IMG/VR virus record: IMGVR_UViG_3300034523_000174 | Location: 13,608 to 77,607 of that record | DNA length: 64,000 nt | Direction: 5' to 3' (one strand) | DNA from: a virus | In this document: positions 1,756-56,439 of the stretch, piece after piece | Layout: the number at the start of each line of letters is the position of its first letter | How positions within the stretch are numbered: position 1 is the stretch's first letter | The notes under the pieces: model-generated | Seen by the model: only the letters and a program-made list of their open reading frames with translations | The model's database searches: none | What the model was told of the DNA's origin: nothing | Position numbers and translations under genes: made by a program

Positions 1756-3348
1756 ATGGCCGACGAAAAGAAACCGAAAAAAAGCCTGATGGGGTCGCTC
1801 GCCGGCGCCACCAAGCTTTTGCTGGGCGAGGTGAGTACCGCGCCCGATATCCGGATGGAAGGGATCAGCACGTTTGACGCCGATTACGTCGGCATTGAAA
1901 TGCTGCTTGGGTCTAGCGAGCGCCCGGCCCGGTCACGTTCTGCGATCTATCAGAAGTGGCATTACATGATTCAGGACGGGCTGATCAGCACCATCCTGCG
2001 CTTGCATGTACAGATGGCGCTGGGCGGCCATGAAACAACCGGGGAAACGATCTTTATCGAAGCCAAGCCCGGTATCTCGGCGGCCGATCAGAAGGCTGTC
2101 GATGAGCTGCAATTTATCGCCAAAATTCTCAACAAGCACGCCCACGGCATTTGCTTCAACGCCTGCGCGTTCGGTGACGCCTACGCCCGTCTGTATACCG
2201 AGAAAGGCATAGGCCTGATCACCATCGACACGGAGTCGGTGTTTTCGCCGCTTGTGCAGGCCTTCGAAGAGATTGGCCATACCGTGGGCTACGTGGTCAG
2301 CATTGGGTCGAAGCTACAGAGCCGGTTCAACCATCTAAAAATGTGCCGTATGCGGATGCCGCGCATGGTGTACCTGCCTCAGATGCGCGCGGTAGAGAAC
2401 GCCCAAAAGATCAACCTGGAAGCCGACACCGCTGATCACCTGGTGCCATTGCCAGCGCTGGTGGGCGGCTCGTTCCTGGAAGCGGCCGAAACGGACTACG
2501 ACAACCTGCTGTCTTCCCTGCGCGGGATGATCGGCCAGCGTATTACCGGATCGATTGACGAAACGATGATCGGCGCCAACCTCTCCGACATGACGGCGCA
2601 GCAACAGAAGCTGTTCATGGATTCGCTCGAAAAGATGCTCAAGAGCATGAAGGATCGGGCCGAGGAAGCGGTGCGCACAGGCACCTACGCTACTTCGCGA
2701 AACTTCCATGTCATGCCGACCTTCAACGAAAAGCAGCTGACGCAAATCAGCTCGTTTCAGGGCGGCTCAAATTCCGGCGCCGGCGCCAACATCGAAGACG
2801 TGATGTTTTGCGCCCGCAAACTGGCGGGCACGCTGGGCATTGACCTGTCGATGGTGGGCTTTGCTGACCAAATGACCGGTGGCCTTGGCGAGGGTGGGTT
2901 TAACCGCACCAGCAGCCAGGCTGCTGAGCGCTCACGGATCATCCGTACTGCTTTCATGAGCATGGTCAATGACGTGATCGACCGCCACAAGCTGGCCAAA
3001 GACGGCAAGGTGTGGGCGGACGATGAGCGCCCGTATGCCGTGAATTTCTTCGGCTCCATCGCCGCGCTTGAGGCTGAGAAACAGGCCAGCCGTGAGCGAT
3101 CGATCAACGGCGGCGTGATGCTGCTCCAGGGTATGGACCTGATGCGCAACATGGGATTGCCCGTGGATGTGATGGAGCAGTTCATGTCCGGATCTATGGA
3201 AATCGACGCCGACAAAGCCAAGGTTTATGCCAAGGGGATCAAGGATGCAAAACCGCCTGCGCCAGACATGGGCGGCGGGAACTTCGGTGGTGATGACAAC
3301 GAGCCGCCATTACTACCGAACGGCACTACAGATAATGGGGAAGAGTGA
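1756..3348 (+). CDS. Portal protein (P1 Prt-like)
   Basis: 530 aa, FGDAY motif, acidic Gly/Pro tail, directly upstream of the protease. Confidence 0.8.
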   Translation: MADEKKPKKSLMGSLAGATKLLLGEVSTAPDIRMEGISTFDADYVGIEMLLGSSERPARSRSAIYQKWHYMIQDGLISTILRLHVQMALGGHETTGETIFIEAKPGISAADQKAVDELQFIAKILNKHAHGICFNACAFGDAYARLYTEKGIGLITIDTESVFSPLVQAFEEIGHTVGYVVSIGSKLQSRFNHLKMCRMRMPRMVYLPQMRAVENAQKINLEADTADHLVPLPALVGGSFLEAAETDYDNLLSSLRGMIGQRITGSIDETMIGANLSDMTAQQQKLFMDSLEKMLKSMKDRAEEAVRTGTYATSRNFHVMPTFNEKQLTQISSFQGGSNSGAGANIEDVMFCARKLAGTLGIDLSMVGFADQMTGGLGEGGFNRTSSQAAERSRIIRTAFMSMVNDVIDRHKLAKDGKVWADDERPYAVNFFGSIAALEAEKQASRERSINGGVMLLQGMDLMRNMGLPVDVMEQFMSGSMEIDADKAKVYAKGIKDAKPPAPDMGGGNFGGDDNEPPLLPNGTTDNGEE

Positions 3349-3350
3349 TC

Positions 3351-4250
3351 ATGCGTAAGCGCACAGGGGTTATCAGTTACAACGTGAACGAGCGCGGGCG
3401 CCAATTCGCCGGCCAAGATCGCAAAGTCAACATTCCGGCGCTGATGGCGCTGATCAACGGCCCGATGGTGCAGGAGTTAGTGCGCAAAGGGGACGTGTAT
3501 GGGTACTTCGGCCATACGTTCCGCGAGAAATACGGCCTCAACGTGCCGGAAACAGTCATTGAGGGCGGAAAAGTGGTGGTGCTGGAGCCCACTGTGCGCA
3601 CGGTGATGATCAAGTGTCTGCCAGACGGCACCATCCAGCATAACCAAGAGTTTTTGAACAACGCGCCGGGGCGTATCGCTGGCCGCCTGTACGACAGCAA
3701 GGCCTATGGGTTCAGTTCGGTGTTCCATGCCCCCGAAGAAGCTGGCCTACGCACGCCCAAGACATTCCACGGTATGGATTTTGTCAGAACCCCGAACTAC
3801 GACACGAACCGGGGCTATGACGCCATGCTGGATAGTGTCGAGGCGGGCGCCATTGAGTCGCTGGGCTTCGCGGGCGAGTGCGCTGCCATGATGGACAGCG
3901 TAGAGGCGATGATGGCGCAGAGCGATGCACAGGCGGCAGAAATCAGTGAAGCCTACCTTCACCAGTGCAAAGTAAACGATGACCTGGTGGACCTCAACGC
4001 TCGCCTGATGCTGCGCCTACAGAAGGCTGGCACGGGCGCCATGCTCGACAGCGCCGATCCGACCACACTTCAGCGCGGTTCGGAGTTCCTGCCAAGCCGT
4101 GCGGCGGCCATGCTCGACAGCGCCGACCGCTTCATGAAAGCCGACCTGCCAGACCTTGAGCCGTCGCCCGAGGAAGTCGCCACCGAGAAGAAAGCCGGCG
4201 TCCTGGCCAAAAGCGTGGATCTGGTGCGTAAAGTGATCGGGGGGGTGTAA
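3351..4250 (+). CDS. Prohead (head-processing) protease, P1 Pro-like
   Basis: YGYFGH, YGFSS and GMDFV..PNY motifs of T4 gp21/herpes-like proteases; four AM(L/M)DS repeats in the C-terminal half. Confidence 0.8.
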   Translation: MRKRTGVISYNVNERGRQFAGQDRKVNIPALMALINGPMVQELVRKGDVYGYFGHTFREKYGLNVPETVIEGGKVVVLEPTVRTVMIKCLPDGTIQHNQEFLNNAPGRIAGRLYDSKAYGFSSVFHAPEEAGLRTPKTFHGMDFVRTPNYDTNRGYDAMLDSVEAGAIESLGFAGECAAMMDSVEAMMAQSDAQAAEISEAYLHQCKVNDDLVDLNARLMLRLQKAGTGAMLDSADPTTLQRGSEFLPSRAAAMLDSADRFMKADLPDLEPSPEEVATEKKAGVLAKSVDLVRKVIGGV

Positions 4251-13484: not shown

Positions 13485-14380
13485 ACGTCTACCTGAGCGA
13501 GAACGGCGATCAATTGCCGTCTGACGTGGTGCTTAAGTGGGTGGGCCGCTCCGACCTTACCCCGGTACCGCGCTCGATTGAGTTCACGGCAAAGCTGATC
13601 GATGGCGTACAGGAAAAGCTCAAGGTGGGCGCCTCGATCTGGTCAGGCCGCGAGAATCTGCGCTATGAGGTGGTCAAGACCGACCGGGCGCCACCGTTGG
13701 GCCAGGTGCAAGGCAAGAGTCAGCAGCAGGCCATGAAAGTCACGGCCTTGCTGCACCGCTGCGCCTCTGTGGCGCGTCCGTTGAATGGGGCGGTCATACT
13801 CTCCAATACCACGCTTGGGGCCATCTACCGGGCTTGTGGCGCCTTCATGCCGGTGGGGAGCGACTTCGCTGTGCCACGCTTTACCTGTTTCAAGGGAAAA
13901 GAACCAAGCTATGCGTTGGCGCAGGTGCTACAGGAGGAAGGCGCGGCGCTGGTGCTCAGGAATGGCAGTATCAGTGCCATGCGCCTGACCGACATGGCCA
14001 AACAGGCGCCGGTTTCCGATATCGGCCAGGTGGACAGCAGCGCCAAAATCGAAAGCGAATTCCTGCAACTGCAAGACATCCCGTCGTACTACTCAGTCGA
14101 CGATACCGCCGCGATTGTTACAGGGCAGATGGGCCAGGCGCGGCGGGTGGCGTTCCTTGCTCGGGCCGATTCGCGCCAGCTCAGGAACGTCAGCTGTGTG
14201 CTGGTGCGCAATAAGACGGTAGACAGCACCATTTGCCAGCAGATCCAAGCCGGTGATGTGCTGCGCGTATCGGGGGAAAACCTGATCGTGATCACCGCCG
14301 CCCACGCCTTTGAGAGCCTAGAGGGTGCGCAGGAAAGCCGCAGCCGCTTATGGCTCGGGAGTATCGTTAATGCCCAGTAA
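13481..14380 (+). CDS. Baseplate hub protein (P1 gp6-like)
   Basis: RSDLTPVP motif; precedes the spike gene. Confidence 0.6.
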   Translation: MNVYLSENGDQLPSDVVLKWVGRSDLTPVPRSIEFTAKLIDGVQEKLKVGASIWSGRENLRYEVVKTDRAPPLGQVQGKSQQQAMKVTALLHRCASVARPLNGAVILSNTTLGAIYRACGAFMPVGSDFAVPRFTCFKGKEPSYALAQVLQEEGAALVLRNGSISAMRLTDMAKQAPVSDIGQVDSSAKIESEFLQLQDIPSYYSVDDTAAIVTGQMGQARRVAFLARADSRQLRNVSCVLVRNKTVDSTICQQIQAGDVLRVSGENLIVITAAHAFESLEGAQESRSRLWLGSIVNAQ

Positions 14381-54467: not shown

Positions 54468-54598
54468 GCAGCCTGGATCGATGCCTTGACGACTACAACA
54501 AAGAGCTGGCGCGGGAAAAGGCGATCAAGCTTGACCCGTACCACCCCGCTCGCCGTACCAAGGGCGAGAAGCACCGGAACAGGAATGCCAAAAAGTGA
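54464..54598 (+). CDS. 44-aa basic hypothetical protein
   Basis: ATGA and GTGA overlaps. Confidence 0.45.
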   Translation: MSSLDRCLDDYNKELAREKAIKLDPYHPARRTKGEKHRNRNAKK

Positions 54599-54663
54599 AA
54601 GCACTATCAATCCGCCAGCCGTGGGCCTGGCTGATCGTCCACGGTGGCAATTATGGGCGGTAG
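54595..54663 (+). pseudogene. Truncated original 5' end of the ASCH gene
   Basis: MKALSIRQPWAWLIVHGG-NYGR* matches the N-terminus of the 55245 gene. Confidence 0.85.
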
Positions 54664-55264
54664 AACTGTCGCAGGACATGAGCGCAAGGCGACCCCGCTA
54701 AGCCCGATCCCTGGCCCTCGACAATCACCAAAAGACGGCTGGGCAATGAGCTGCGCATGTGGATGGGTAGCCCAGCCATTTGCCAGGCGTGCGGATGCGG
54801 AGAAAGCCTACGGCGCCCACCTATTGGATGCGCTCCCAATATGCCAGGGGTGCAACACCAAGAAGCCGACGCGGGAAATGTCGAAGTCAGCGCCACACAA
54901 GTGCAAGGCCTGCGCACGCGCAGCTATCAAAGCATGGGCCGAAGCGAACCCGTCAGAGTGGGAGCGGAGCCGCTGGAAATCTCACCTGAAGCGCCAGTAC
55001 GGAATCACACCGGAGCGATACAACGAGATACTGGCGTCACAGGGAGGGCTTTGTGCGATTTGCTTGAAATCTCCAGCAGATCCGCGAGGCTTTAGGCCGC
55101 ATCTCGATCATGACCACGCTACTGGGCAGGTCAGGGGAATCCTTTGTGGGCCATGTAATAAGGGGCTTGGGATGTTTGGTGATGAGCTGGCAGTGATCCG
55201 CTCGGCTTTGGCCTATCTGGAAAAACACAGCAAGGAGGTGGCGATTGAAAGCATTGTCGATTAA
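54653..55264 (+). CDS. Endonuclease VII-type HNH protein, probable homing endonuclease
   Basis: YGIT...QGGLCAIC...HLDHDHATGQVRGILCGPCNKGLG; start uncertain (54644, 54653 or 54746). Confidence 0.85.
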   Translation: MGGRTVAGHERKATPLSPIPGPRQSPKDGWAMSCACGWVAQPFARRADAEKAYGAHLLDALPICQGCNTKKPTREMSKSAPHKCKACARAAIKAWAEANPSEWERSRWKSHLKRQYGITPERYNEILASQGGLCAICLKSPADPRGFRPHLDHDHATGQVRGILCGPCNKGLGMFGDELAVIRSALAYLEKHSKEVAIESIVD

Positions 55265-55640
55265 GCAACCATGGGCGCATCTGATCATCCATCATGGGAA
55301 AGACATCGAAAATCGTAGTTGGCACACAAAGTACCGGGGCCGCTTCCTGGTGCACGCTTCCAAGGGCGTGACAAGGGACGAATACACCACGGCTTACCAG
55401 TTCGCCCTGGAGCGCGGAATTACTGATATGCCCCGCTTTGCTGAGCTGCAACGGGGCGGGATTATCGGCTCTGTTGAGCTGGTCGACAGCCTGGACCATA
55501 GCGATTCGCCTTGGTACATGGGCCAGAAGGGTTATCTGCTGCGCGATCCTCAGTACCTGCCATTCATTCCTTACCCTGGCCAGCTTCAATTTTTCGAAGT
55601 GCCGAATCACCTACTGCCGCAAGGGACTGCAAATGTCTGA
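55245..55640 (+). CDS. ASCH domain protein
   Basis: KALSIKQPWA.LI..GKDIENRSW.T.YRG...HAS; TTG start with AAGGAGG SD. Confidence 0.88.
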   Translation: MKALSIKQPWAHLIIHHGKDIENRSWHTKYRGRFLVHASKGVTRDEYTTAYQFALERGITDMPRFAELQRGGIIGSVELVDSLDHSDSPWYMGQKGYLLRDPQYLPFIPYPGQLQFFEVPNHLLPQGTANV

Positions 55641-56439
55641 TATCGATCCAACGGAGCTTGAGCGCGTAATTCGCAAGATCAAGCACTGCCTGGCCTTGTC
55701 GGCCAGCTCTAACGAGCACGAAGCGGCAGCGGCCATGCGCCAGGCTCAAAAGCTGATGGCCAAGTATCGTCTCACTGAGACTCAGGTGAATCTGAGCGAT
55801 GTAGGTATGACACAGGGCGAGCAGGCAAAGGCGAAGCGCGATCAGTGGGAATGCTTGCTTTCTGCGGTAGTGGCTGACGTATTCGACTGCGAAGGTCTGA
55901 CCAAAAAGTATTGGTGCAATACGCGAGGCCGCGTCGAGGTGCCTTTGTTTGTCGGTGTGACGCCGGCGCCGGAAATTGCCAAGTACGCCTACGATACCCT
56001 CCACCGCCAATGTAAGACCGCCCGCAAGGCCTACATGGATCGAATCAAGCGCGGAGAACTTCCTAAATCTTCGGTATCTGCCAAGACCAGAGGCAATCAC
56101 TTCGCACTGTATTGGGTTGGTGAAGTGCAGGACAAGCTCAAGGCGCTGATACCGACGGGAGAGGACTCGCCCGAGCAGGCCGAAAGCGATACCCACGCTT
56201 TGATCGCCATCAAGGGCCGTAGTCAGGAACTAATCGACGCCTACCTGCATAACCTCACGGACGGTAAAGGCCCGGCCGAGGGGCCAAACCGTCGCAAGAT
56301 CAAGGTTAACCCGATAGACGCCCATTTTGGCGCGAAGGCCGGCCGCCAGGCTCAAGTCAGTCACGGCGTAGGAACGACGGGCGAGCAGTTGGCCGCCATT
56401 GGCCAGGCGCCTGCCGGGACACAGGGGAGCTTTCTGTGA
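55633..56439 (+). CDS. DUF2786-domain protein
   Basis: IRKIKHCLALSASSNEHEAAAAMRQAQKLMAKY. Confidence 0.8.
   Translation: MSDIDPTELERVIRKIKHCLALSASSNEHEAAAAMRQAQKLMAKYRLTETQVNLSDVGMTQGEQAKAKRDQWECLLSAVVADVFDCEGLTKKYWCNTRGRVEVPLFVGVTPAPEIAKYAYDTLHRQCKTARKAYMDRIKRGELPKSSVSAKTRGNHFALYWVGEVQDKLKALIPTGEDSPEQAESDTHALIAIKGRSQELIDAYLHNLTDGKGPAEGPNRRKIKVNPIDAHFGAKAGRQAQVSHGVGTTGEQLAAIGQAPAGTQGSFL

Follow-up and report, generated by a model that had tools for sequence, protein, structure and literature searches.

The stretch of DNA analyzed here (the window) comprises 64,000 nt, positions 13,608 to 77,607, of IMG/VR record IMGVR_UViG_3300034523_000174, a metagenome-derived but complete 77.6-kb viral genome with direct terminal repeats, and all coordinates refer to positions of this window unless the handle of another locus precedes them. 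Within the window, an ASCH gene was found to be divided between codons 18 and 19 by a 650-bp insert that encodes an EndoVII-type HNH nuclease together with a foreign replacement for the first 18 codons of the interrupted gene. We consider it highly probable that this arrangement represents a mobile, free-standing homing-endonuclease cassette specialised on phage ASCH genes.

The features of the locus are compiled in Table 1, and most of what an earlier note had read from the sequence of this region was borne out. The short stub of the resident ASCH gene, described there as coupled to the upstream gene, overlaps the upstream 44-aa open reading frame (ORF) by the tetranucleotide GTGA, an overlap from which the two are judged to be translationally coupled. 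The stub is followed by the proposed insert with its EndoVII-type HNH domain, for which the start of the nuclease was set at 54653. The AAGGAGG Shine-Dalgarno (SD) sequence and the new start codon, both overlapping the nuclease C-terminus, are present in the sequence as described, and the replacement start, which covers the last six nuclease codons in another frame, is fused in frame to the resident KDIENR. Joining 54650 directly to 55301 did restore ...HGGKDIENR. The stub ORF continues four codons into the insert and terminates at a TAG (54661-54663) located 8 nt beyond the nuclease ATG, while the boundary of the insert is ambiguous by 2 nt (AA is common to both sides). The description of the replacement as a recoded 5' end held only in part. 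Its sequence is indeed different, with the stub and the replacement start of the window alike at 35/53 nt, but the differences are not synonymous, as the replacement is a foreign allele with at least two amino acid changes (W12H and G17H). Purely synonymous recoding was therefore rejected.

Uninterrupted ASCH genes were found at the corresponding position of related phages. Three IMG/VR contigs of 83-86 kb (L076, L077 and L078), which are syntenic with the window on both sides at ~75-86% DNA identity, each carry such a gene, and both the window stub (54596-54650) and the rebuilt gene (from 55246) align to its one 5' end. Because the stub aligns with codons 1-18 of the uninterrupted syntenic gene at 50/53 nt, its correspondence to ASCH is not a matter of chance, and we infer that it is the remnant of the invaded gene, serving as left homology arm. 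A further insert-free contig was present in runs X18 (an RNA library) and X14 (DNA). It joins 54605 to 55302 with 46 letters in between, exactly the length to be expected without the insert (native codons 5-18 contribute 45 nt, and one further base is added), and exhibits window-like flanks as well as an ASCH body with 0 differences to the window over 195 nt. The earlier note had named beforehand the lack of an empty allele with exactly this junction as grounds for giving up its reading; this allele is present in all three syntenic contigs and in the contig from X18 and X14.

These insert-free sequences bear directly on the possibility of a self-splicing intron, or of some other spliced element, the removal of which from the RNA would restore the native ASCH frame. 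The exact restoration of the frame by the 54650/55301 join and the existence of RNA-library contigs without the insert would both be expected of splicing. However, the 46 letters of the insert-free contig differ from the window stub and the contig was also recovered from a DNA run, so that it represents another allele rather than a spliced product. Furthermore, an Rfam search returned no family at E<=1, the ORF takes up 612 of the 650 nt, and every copy has kept the SD sequence, the start codon and the full set of 18 replacement codons in frame. The nuclease gene itself is an ORF with separate start and stop codons in a frame other than that of ASCH and lies within neither an intron nor an intein. 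The element is thus in all likelihood non-splicing, as the earlier note had maintained, with an SD sequence and a start of its own for ASCH and with an insert-free form that exists as DNA; splicing, which is scarcely credible on this evidence, was rejected.

The distribution of the nuclease among ASCH genes was sporadic. No nuclease was associated with 36 of the 38 viral ASCH loci or with 11 of the 12 ASCH-positive genomes among 401 Pseudomonas species representatives, and among GenBank phage records only Touem01 yielded an uninterrupted ASCH gene. A sporadic yet site-faithful distribution of this kind is expected of a homing element and speaks against an obligatory two-gene module. One of the nuclease-free alleles (L087:3001-3390) exhibited a TAG in place of the conserved W10 codon (QP*AW), and this gene is either a pseudogene or carries a target-site mutation.

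The arrangement is found in at least four unrelated Pseudomonas-type phage backgrounds. In the prophage of Pseudomonas sp. NFIX28, an isolate genome in which L002, L114 and L124 are one and the same locus, the nuclease shares 93% protein identity with that of the window while the flanks are unrelated; the stub reads MKALSIRQPWAWLIVHGG followed by DHGR and the stop codon, and the ASCH gene opens with MKALSIRQPWAHLITHHRKN. A metagenome contig (L204) encoding a 94% identical nuclease exhibits an equal arrangement in a third context. The window, L124 and L204 have their junction in common, with GGC[AG]A on the left and T[TC]ATGGGCGGTAG on the right of the boundary, and in the latter two loci the stub likewise ends with a TAG and overlaps the nuclease ATG, while the SD sequence is represented by AAAGAGG (L124) and AAGGAAG (L204). 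The nuclease of L206 is only 43% identical and is accompanied by its own stub (MILRGLVLKQPWASACVAGGK...) and its own junction, with an ATGA overlap between stub stop and nuclease start; its replaced start, MILRALVLKQPWAHGCIFLQKDIENR, again has H12 and no longer contains the GG pair. In addition, the homologue P0018 is an in-frame fusion of MKALSILQP... with the nuclease.

A further contig, present in runs X15, X16 and X18 from three unrelated studies, is 98% identical to the window over 54596-55354, a span that takes in the stub and the insert and extends 54 nt into the body, with unlike sequence directly beyond both ends. Judging from these limits, the tract records a recent conversion that did not reach beyond the ASCH gene. 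X15, X16 and X18 are RNA libraries (from leaf litter, a mixed culture and a single-organism transcriptome) in which the cassette contig has identical flanks, suggesting a widespread or contaminant Pseudomonas strain or phage rather than three independent habitats. Overall, the cassette stretch was encountered in contigs from at least 15 studies. This recurrence also addresses the concern that the locus is a chimera or another artefact of viral contig assembly. Apart from the metagenomic origin of the record nothing specific points to such an artefact, and the presence of the arrangement in an isolate genome (NFIX28), in independent metagenome assemblies and in the contigs of these studies renders it barely conceivable; it was rejected.

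Comparison of the individual parts of the locus revealed different affiliations. Stubs were most similar to the nuclease-free alleles of their own lineage (50/53 nt for the window and L076 as well as for L124 and L087) and matched each other at 41-46/53 nt. The replacement starts of the window, L124 and L204 were alike at 45/53 nt among themselves versus 29-35/53 nt to their own stubs. Along the gene, the first 60-nt interval of the rebuilt ASCH, which holds the 5' 56 nt, was 68% identical to L076, while the resident body reached 83-90% by the junction and 93-100% from ~95 nt downstream; the identity of the body to other nuclease-bearing alleles ranged from 39 to 86% in intervals of the same size. 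Among the three loci, synonymous divergence amounted to 0.5-0.8 for the nuclease versus 1.25-1.8 for the ASCH bodies. Bodies beside a nuclease remain intact and constrained, with ratios of nonsynonymous to synonymous divergence (dN/dS) of 0.08-0.19 against the nearest empty alleles (0.08 for the window against L076). On a tree of 152 ASCH bodies, calculated from residue 21 onward and including eight alleles with the H12/H17 (HH-type) start, this start required seven changes (label-shuffle mean 7.9), at least three of which are forced by well-supported branches. These comparisons support the view that nuclease and replacement 5' end move together, whereas the stub and the body are those of the lineage in which the element is found, and the alignments thus display the co-conversion of flanks and the phylogenetic incongruence with the host gene by which homing is recognised.

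The same comparisons argue against a tandem duplication of the ASCH 5' end in place, followed by divergence and the landing of an unrelated HNH gene between the copies. Such a course of events would explain why the HNH gene is flanked by two copies of the 18 codons. However, the downstream copy resembles the downstream copies of unrelated phages (45/53) more than it does the adjoining stub (35/53), which in turn finds its best match in the lineage's own empty allele (50/53), and both copies recur together with the junction in separate backgrounds. A duplication in place, very improbable in light of these numbers, was rejected as well.

The nuclease matched the Pfam family PF02945 at 88.1 bits (cut-off 23.6; E 4e-25) over residues 114-194. 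Its true start is the ATG at 54653 and not 54651 or 54644, since 20 homologues of ~195 aa open with M[GS]G[KR]..AGH. In the protein, a Cys-rich domain occupies the N-terminal ~110 aa and is followed by the EndoVII (DHHRN) catalytic domain at the C-terminus, which contains the catalytic/zinc motif C134xxC137, D152-H153-D154-H155, R161, C165xxC168 and N169, in which all residues except D154 are invariant across the 20 homologues. The AlphaFold2 (AF2) model of the nuclease reached a predicted local distance difference test score (pLDDT) of 89, and the top Foldseek matches in the PDB were T4 EndoVII (1e7l/1en7) and Hpy99I (E ~1e-3, probability 1.00). With a dN/dS of 0.04-0.06 the gene is under strong purifying selection. 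These features identify it as an EndoVII/DHHRN-type HNH nuclease with a retained active-site set and a predicted cleavage specificity. The N-terminal domain (54653-54980, residues 1-110), in which C34, C36, C64, C67, C84, C87 and W30/W38 are invariant, had no Pfam match and no clear structural neighbour and presumably is the DNA-recognition module that sets the specificity for ASCH. No close relative of the nuclease was present among GenBank phages (all <60% identity) or PLSDB plasmids.

A full-length family was defined by similarity that also extends across the Cys-rich N-terminal 110 residues, as opposed to loci alike in the HNH domain only. All nine loci of this family (eight distinct elements) exhibited an ASCH gene or, in L128, an ASCH-like start at the nuclease end, versus none of the 235 loci with HNH-domain-only similarity. 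The earlier note had proposed a search for other EndoVII genes beside ASCH stubs; such genes are present in L124, L204 and L206, while L126, L127 and L128 are family members without a stub; L205 probably lacks a stub as well, and L125 may carry a decayed one. The nuclease family is thus specialised on ASCH, and bearing a stub is one of the states in which it occurs. Closer examination of individual members revealed that CAATT precedes the nuclease ATG both in the window and in the stub-less L127, a motif that may point to microhomology at the original left junction. At L128:2501-3363 a family member of 48% identity precedes an ORF whose first 11 codons are ASCH-like (MKALSIKQPYA) and whose remainder is unrelated, so that a non-ASCH gene may have received an ASCH start or been left with one. 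At L125:3075-3420, the ASCH gene 3' of the nuclease has ACG CGA for the expected ATG AAA and no canonical start, and the nuclease frame continues into it; this gene may be broken or may use an unusual start.

Differences between the replacement starts and other alleles were concentrated at conserved positions. Within nt 4-60 of the gene, 31 positions were at least 90% conserved in 47 nuclease-free alleles. These alleles themselves averaged 0.7 mismatches at the 31 positions (none in 30/47) and stubs had 0-1, as opposed to 6-7 in the three replacement starts; at 29 positions that were at least 90% conserved the window stub had 0 mismatches. The replacement mismatches fell into two blocks, nt 33-36 (GCC TGG to GCG CAT/C) and nt 48-57 (CAC GGC GGC AAG to CAT CAT GGG AAA), and codons 12 and 17 are altered at all three positions, hence W12H and G17H. 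From this clustering, the replacement start is presumed to be a cleavage-immune version of the target. W..GG was present in 97 of the 120 nearest ASCH homologues, a few of which had HH-type or intermediate forms. Intermediate starts were noted in P0183, P0150, P0123, P0125, P0193 and L286 (WAH..HGG, WAH..YGG, WAH..HCG, WAF..YCG and WAT..HHG) and could be partial conversion tracts, nuclease-loss alleles or resistant target variants.

In the GxKxxExR signature of the window allele K19, E22 and R24 are kept, while the motif G (residue 17) is H. The Pfam score for ASCH (PF04266) was 20.9 bits, just below the cut-off of 21.2, and a profile match to the ASCH domain of human ASC-1, in which residue 12 is S, was obtained at E 1e-12. 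The AF2 model of the rebuilt protein (pLDDT 91) placed residues 12 and 17 in the first helix (10-17). HH-type alleles keep intact ORFs and all other invariant residues, which suggests that the H12/H17 ASCH protein is functional. It is plausible, as the earlier note had proposed, that the cassette keeps the gene functional and cleavage-resistant and that its nuclease cuts competing phages.

Based on these results the following course of events is proposed for the homing cassette. The nuclease would cut uninterrupted ASCH genes within the highly conserved stretch at codons ~11-20, and the break would be repaired from the element-bearing genome, with stub (56 nt) and body (~340 nt) providing the homology arms. 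Such repair would copy the cassette in and remake the stub each time, and any phage that shares only ASCH would be open to invasion. The foreign start would escape cutting through its two differing blocks, in which GCC-TGG is replaced by GCG-CAT and CAC-GGC-GGC-AAG by CAT-CAT-GGG-AAA. Translation of the nuclease probably depends on coupling to the stub ORF, which opens at the original initiation site of the gene. The distance between the end of the stub ORF and the nuclease ATG is 0-8 nt in 4/4 stub-bearing loci, and in P0018 the two are fused in frame. ASCH would in turn be translated from the SD sequence and the TTG of the cassette. The stub-bearing form probably arose from a nuclease located just upstream of ASCH, as in the stub-less relatives, and the stub could have originated by one-sided homologous repair with an illegitimate left junction in a genome that shared only ASCH. 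One-sided homology with illegitimate double-strand-break repair has been documented for T4 intron homing (PMC2988022).

Several points weigh against this proposal. The stub-less state of L126, L127, L128 and probably L205 implies that the stub is not needed for persistence, and ordinary homologous recombination between co-infecting phages via the ASCH flanks could spread the insert without the nuclease. W12H and G17H alter near-invariant residues, including the G of GxKxxExR, in a gene whose repair is itself deduced, and sequence patterns are the sole basis for placing the target site and the cut and for regarding the replacement start as immune. Ordinary recombination is also the mode of spread if the nuclease works with the HH-type ASCH as a functional two-gene module, such as a defence or anti-defence pair, with the stub as an incidental scar and ASCH DNA not the target of the nuclease. 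The strict adjacency of nuclease and ASCH in 9/9 family loci (eight distinct) fits such a module, as do the amino acid changes of the HH-type ASCH, which are not merely silent, and the literature background of PUA-like and ASCH domains that occur with nucleases in modification-sensing systems. We nevertheless regard it as unlikely, since the ASCH bodies are resident in their lineages and mutually unrelated while only the first 18-20 codons travel with the nuclease, every insertion occupies one and the same nucleotide position within the coding sequence, the changes are concentrated in those DNA blocks that are most conserved, and most ASCH genes are without a nuclease.

The proposed homing cassette shares features with several known systems. 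The mobile open reading frames (mORFs) of fungal mitochondria, known from atp6 of Allomyces macrogynus and from atp6, atp9, cox2 and nad3 of Glomus, insert a nuclease ORF along with foreign sequence for the C-terminal part of the gene, while the displaced native C-terminus stays behind as a remnant (PMC3630166; Paquin et al. 1994, cited therein). In both systems an endonuclease ORF within a conserved gene is accompanied by a diverged foreign copy of the displaced end, which results in a hybrid gene, and the adjacent native remnant, unlike the inserted copy, matches close relatives. In contrast to the mORFs, the ASCH cassette replaces the 5' end, a mirror image that requires it to supply an SD sequence and a start codon, and translation of the nuclease apparently relies on the native start that was left behind. 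Moreover, mORF nucleases are of the LAGLIDADG or GIY-YIG type and their hosts fungi, while that of the ASCH cassette is of the EndoVII/DHHRN type and its host a bacteriophage. The ASCH cassette works like an mORF but, with its 5' position and its EndoVII-type nuclease, is outside that group.

Free-standing insertions of the T4 type include mobA with the split of gene 60/39, mobE in nrdA of Aeh1, and the intronless homing of seg and mob genes (PMC2988022). Similarities comprise a free-standing nuclease in or beside a conserved gene, its presence or absence among relatives and the co-conversion of flanks. T4-type resistance is conferred by sequence differences near the insertion, to which the presumed resistance of the ASCH cassette is likened. 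Whereas the host gene of a T4-type insertion is expressed in two pieces, or the insertion is intergenic, ASCH stays in one piece owing to the substitute 5' end that the cassette delivers, and the displaced part is a 22-codon stub.

With respect to the nuclease, the nearest counterpart is F-CphI of cyanophage S-PM2, a DHHRN (EndoVII-motif) homing endonuclease with the pattern CX2-4C ... DHDH ... R ... CX2C-N (PMC6083498). Both are encoded by free-standing genes that adjoin their target gene, and both display CxxC, DHDH, R, CxxC and N in a C-terminal catalytic domain that follows a separate N-terminal domain. Neither the N-terminal domains nor the targets (psbA versus ASCH) are related. No duplicated gene end accompanies F-CphI, and its activity has been demonstrated while the ASCH nuclease is known from its sequence.

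A gene that remains intact after integration is also known from e14 and phage 21 in icd of E. coli and from tRNA-gene prophages, which integrate within a gene and bring a diverged version of the displaced terminus. These elements employ site-specific recombinases and replace 3' ends, unlike the ASCH element, which is a 650-bp nuclease cassette proposed to move by break repair. In full-text searches of the literature available, neither a phage nuclease cassette with a replacement gene start nor a link between homing endonucleases and ASCH was found, although absence there is no proof of novelty. What is supported here is a gene-end-replacing homing cassette in phages, acting on a 5' end, from an EndoVII-type family that is specialised on ASCH, with evidence of recent spread.

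To assess how general this architecture is, both flanks of the nuclease were compared by Smith-Waterman similarity at 236 EndoVII-type loci. The screen recovered the ASCH cases as well as one different case, L050:2527-3799, in which an EndoVII nuclease of 212 aa (2602-3240, + strand) lies beside an intact transglutaminase-like gene (3245-3799, - strand), the last 16 codons of which are present as an orphan copy beyond the nuclease (2527-2577, - strand). The two copies read GWQPPVGEVLTDWGRD and GWQPPRGEVLTDWGKD, each followed by the stop codon, and differ mostly at third codon positions. From its sequence, L050 looks like a 3'-end version of the gene-end-replacing architecture, and with a different nuclease, a different host gene and the opposite gene end it suggests that the architecture is general and not a one-off. 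Two further loci exhibited similar flanks. Another EndoVII-type nuclease in L280 is flanked by diverged coding segments at 2056-2150 and 3002-3093 (EGLLLFW...TIDLEQ and EDMLLFW...TIDVDK), which may be a further example or paralogous genes. The strongest flank similarity of the screen (score 116) was observed in L116 at about 2500-3700 and resembles the C-terminal region of the nuclease itself (..LERAA.YL..); a tandem pair of EndoVII genes is the likely explanation here, rather than duplication of a host-gene end.

It is an evenly balanced question whether phage homing endonucleases include an overlooked class of gene-end-replacing cassettes, each with a cleavage-immune terminus and portable wherever the respective gene occurs, the 5' version of which takes over the original translation start for the nuclease. 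For the ASCH cassette, the arrangement indicates that a free-standing nuclease gene can enter a phage coding sequence without an intron or intein by delivering a substitute start, and a presumably uncuttable gene start with its own ribosome-binding site would lower the cost to the host. Both homology arms lie within one conserved gene, and the cassette would consequently not depend on flanking synteny, which accounts for its presence in unrelated phages. The ASCH gene could serve as a marker for tracking recent exchange among Pseudomonas phages, with the 98% tract common to different backgrounds as an example. For annotation, the 22-codon stub and the TTG-started ASCH gene are easily mis-called. 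Finally, the nuclease of the cassette is a candidate for a sequence-specific enzyme of the EndoVII type, and its target is predicted to span ~30 bp.

Table 1. Features of the interrupted ASCH locus in window coordinates.
Feature	Start	End	Strand	Remarks
Upstream 44-aa ORF	54464	54598	+	TGA stop overlaps the GTG start of the stub (GTGA)
Resident ASCH 5' stub (native codons 1-18 plus 2 nt)	54595	54650	+	50/53 nt as in the L076 empty allele
Stub ORF, 22 codons, GTG start	54595	54663	+	MKALSIRQPWAWLIVHGG+NYGR*
Mobile insert, 650 bp (nuclease gene plus replacement ASCH start)	54651	55300	+	Missing in syntenic L076, L077 and L078
Nuclease gene, 203 aa	54653	55264	+	Pfam PF02945 Endonuclease_7
Cassette Shine-Dalgarno sequence, AAGGAGG	55232	55238	+	6 nt 5' of the TTG of the rebuilt ASCH gene
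Replacement (foreign) ASCH codons 1-18 plus 2 nt	55245	55300	+	TTG start at 55245; reads MKALSIKQPWAHLIIHHG
Rebuilt ASCH gene, 131 aa	55245	55640	+	Intact ORF; begins MKALSIKQPWAHLIIHHGKDIENR
Resident ASCH body (right homology arm)	55301	55640	+	93-100% identity to L076 from ~95 nt downstream of the junction

The surroundings of the ASCH gene varied among the syntenic contigs. The upstream 44-aa ORF was present in L077 and missing in L076. A promoter/terminator scan yielded no promoter-like site, and the one terminator-like hairpin, at 55038-55055 inside the nuclease ORF, was below chance expectation. The gene located 3' of ASCH (55633-56439, 268 aa, DUF2786 and DUF7168), the ATG of which overlaps the ASCH stop region, was missing in the syntenic L076 and L077 but present in L078, indicating that the module is mosaic.

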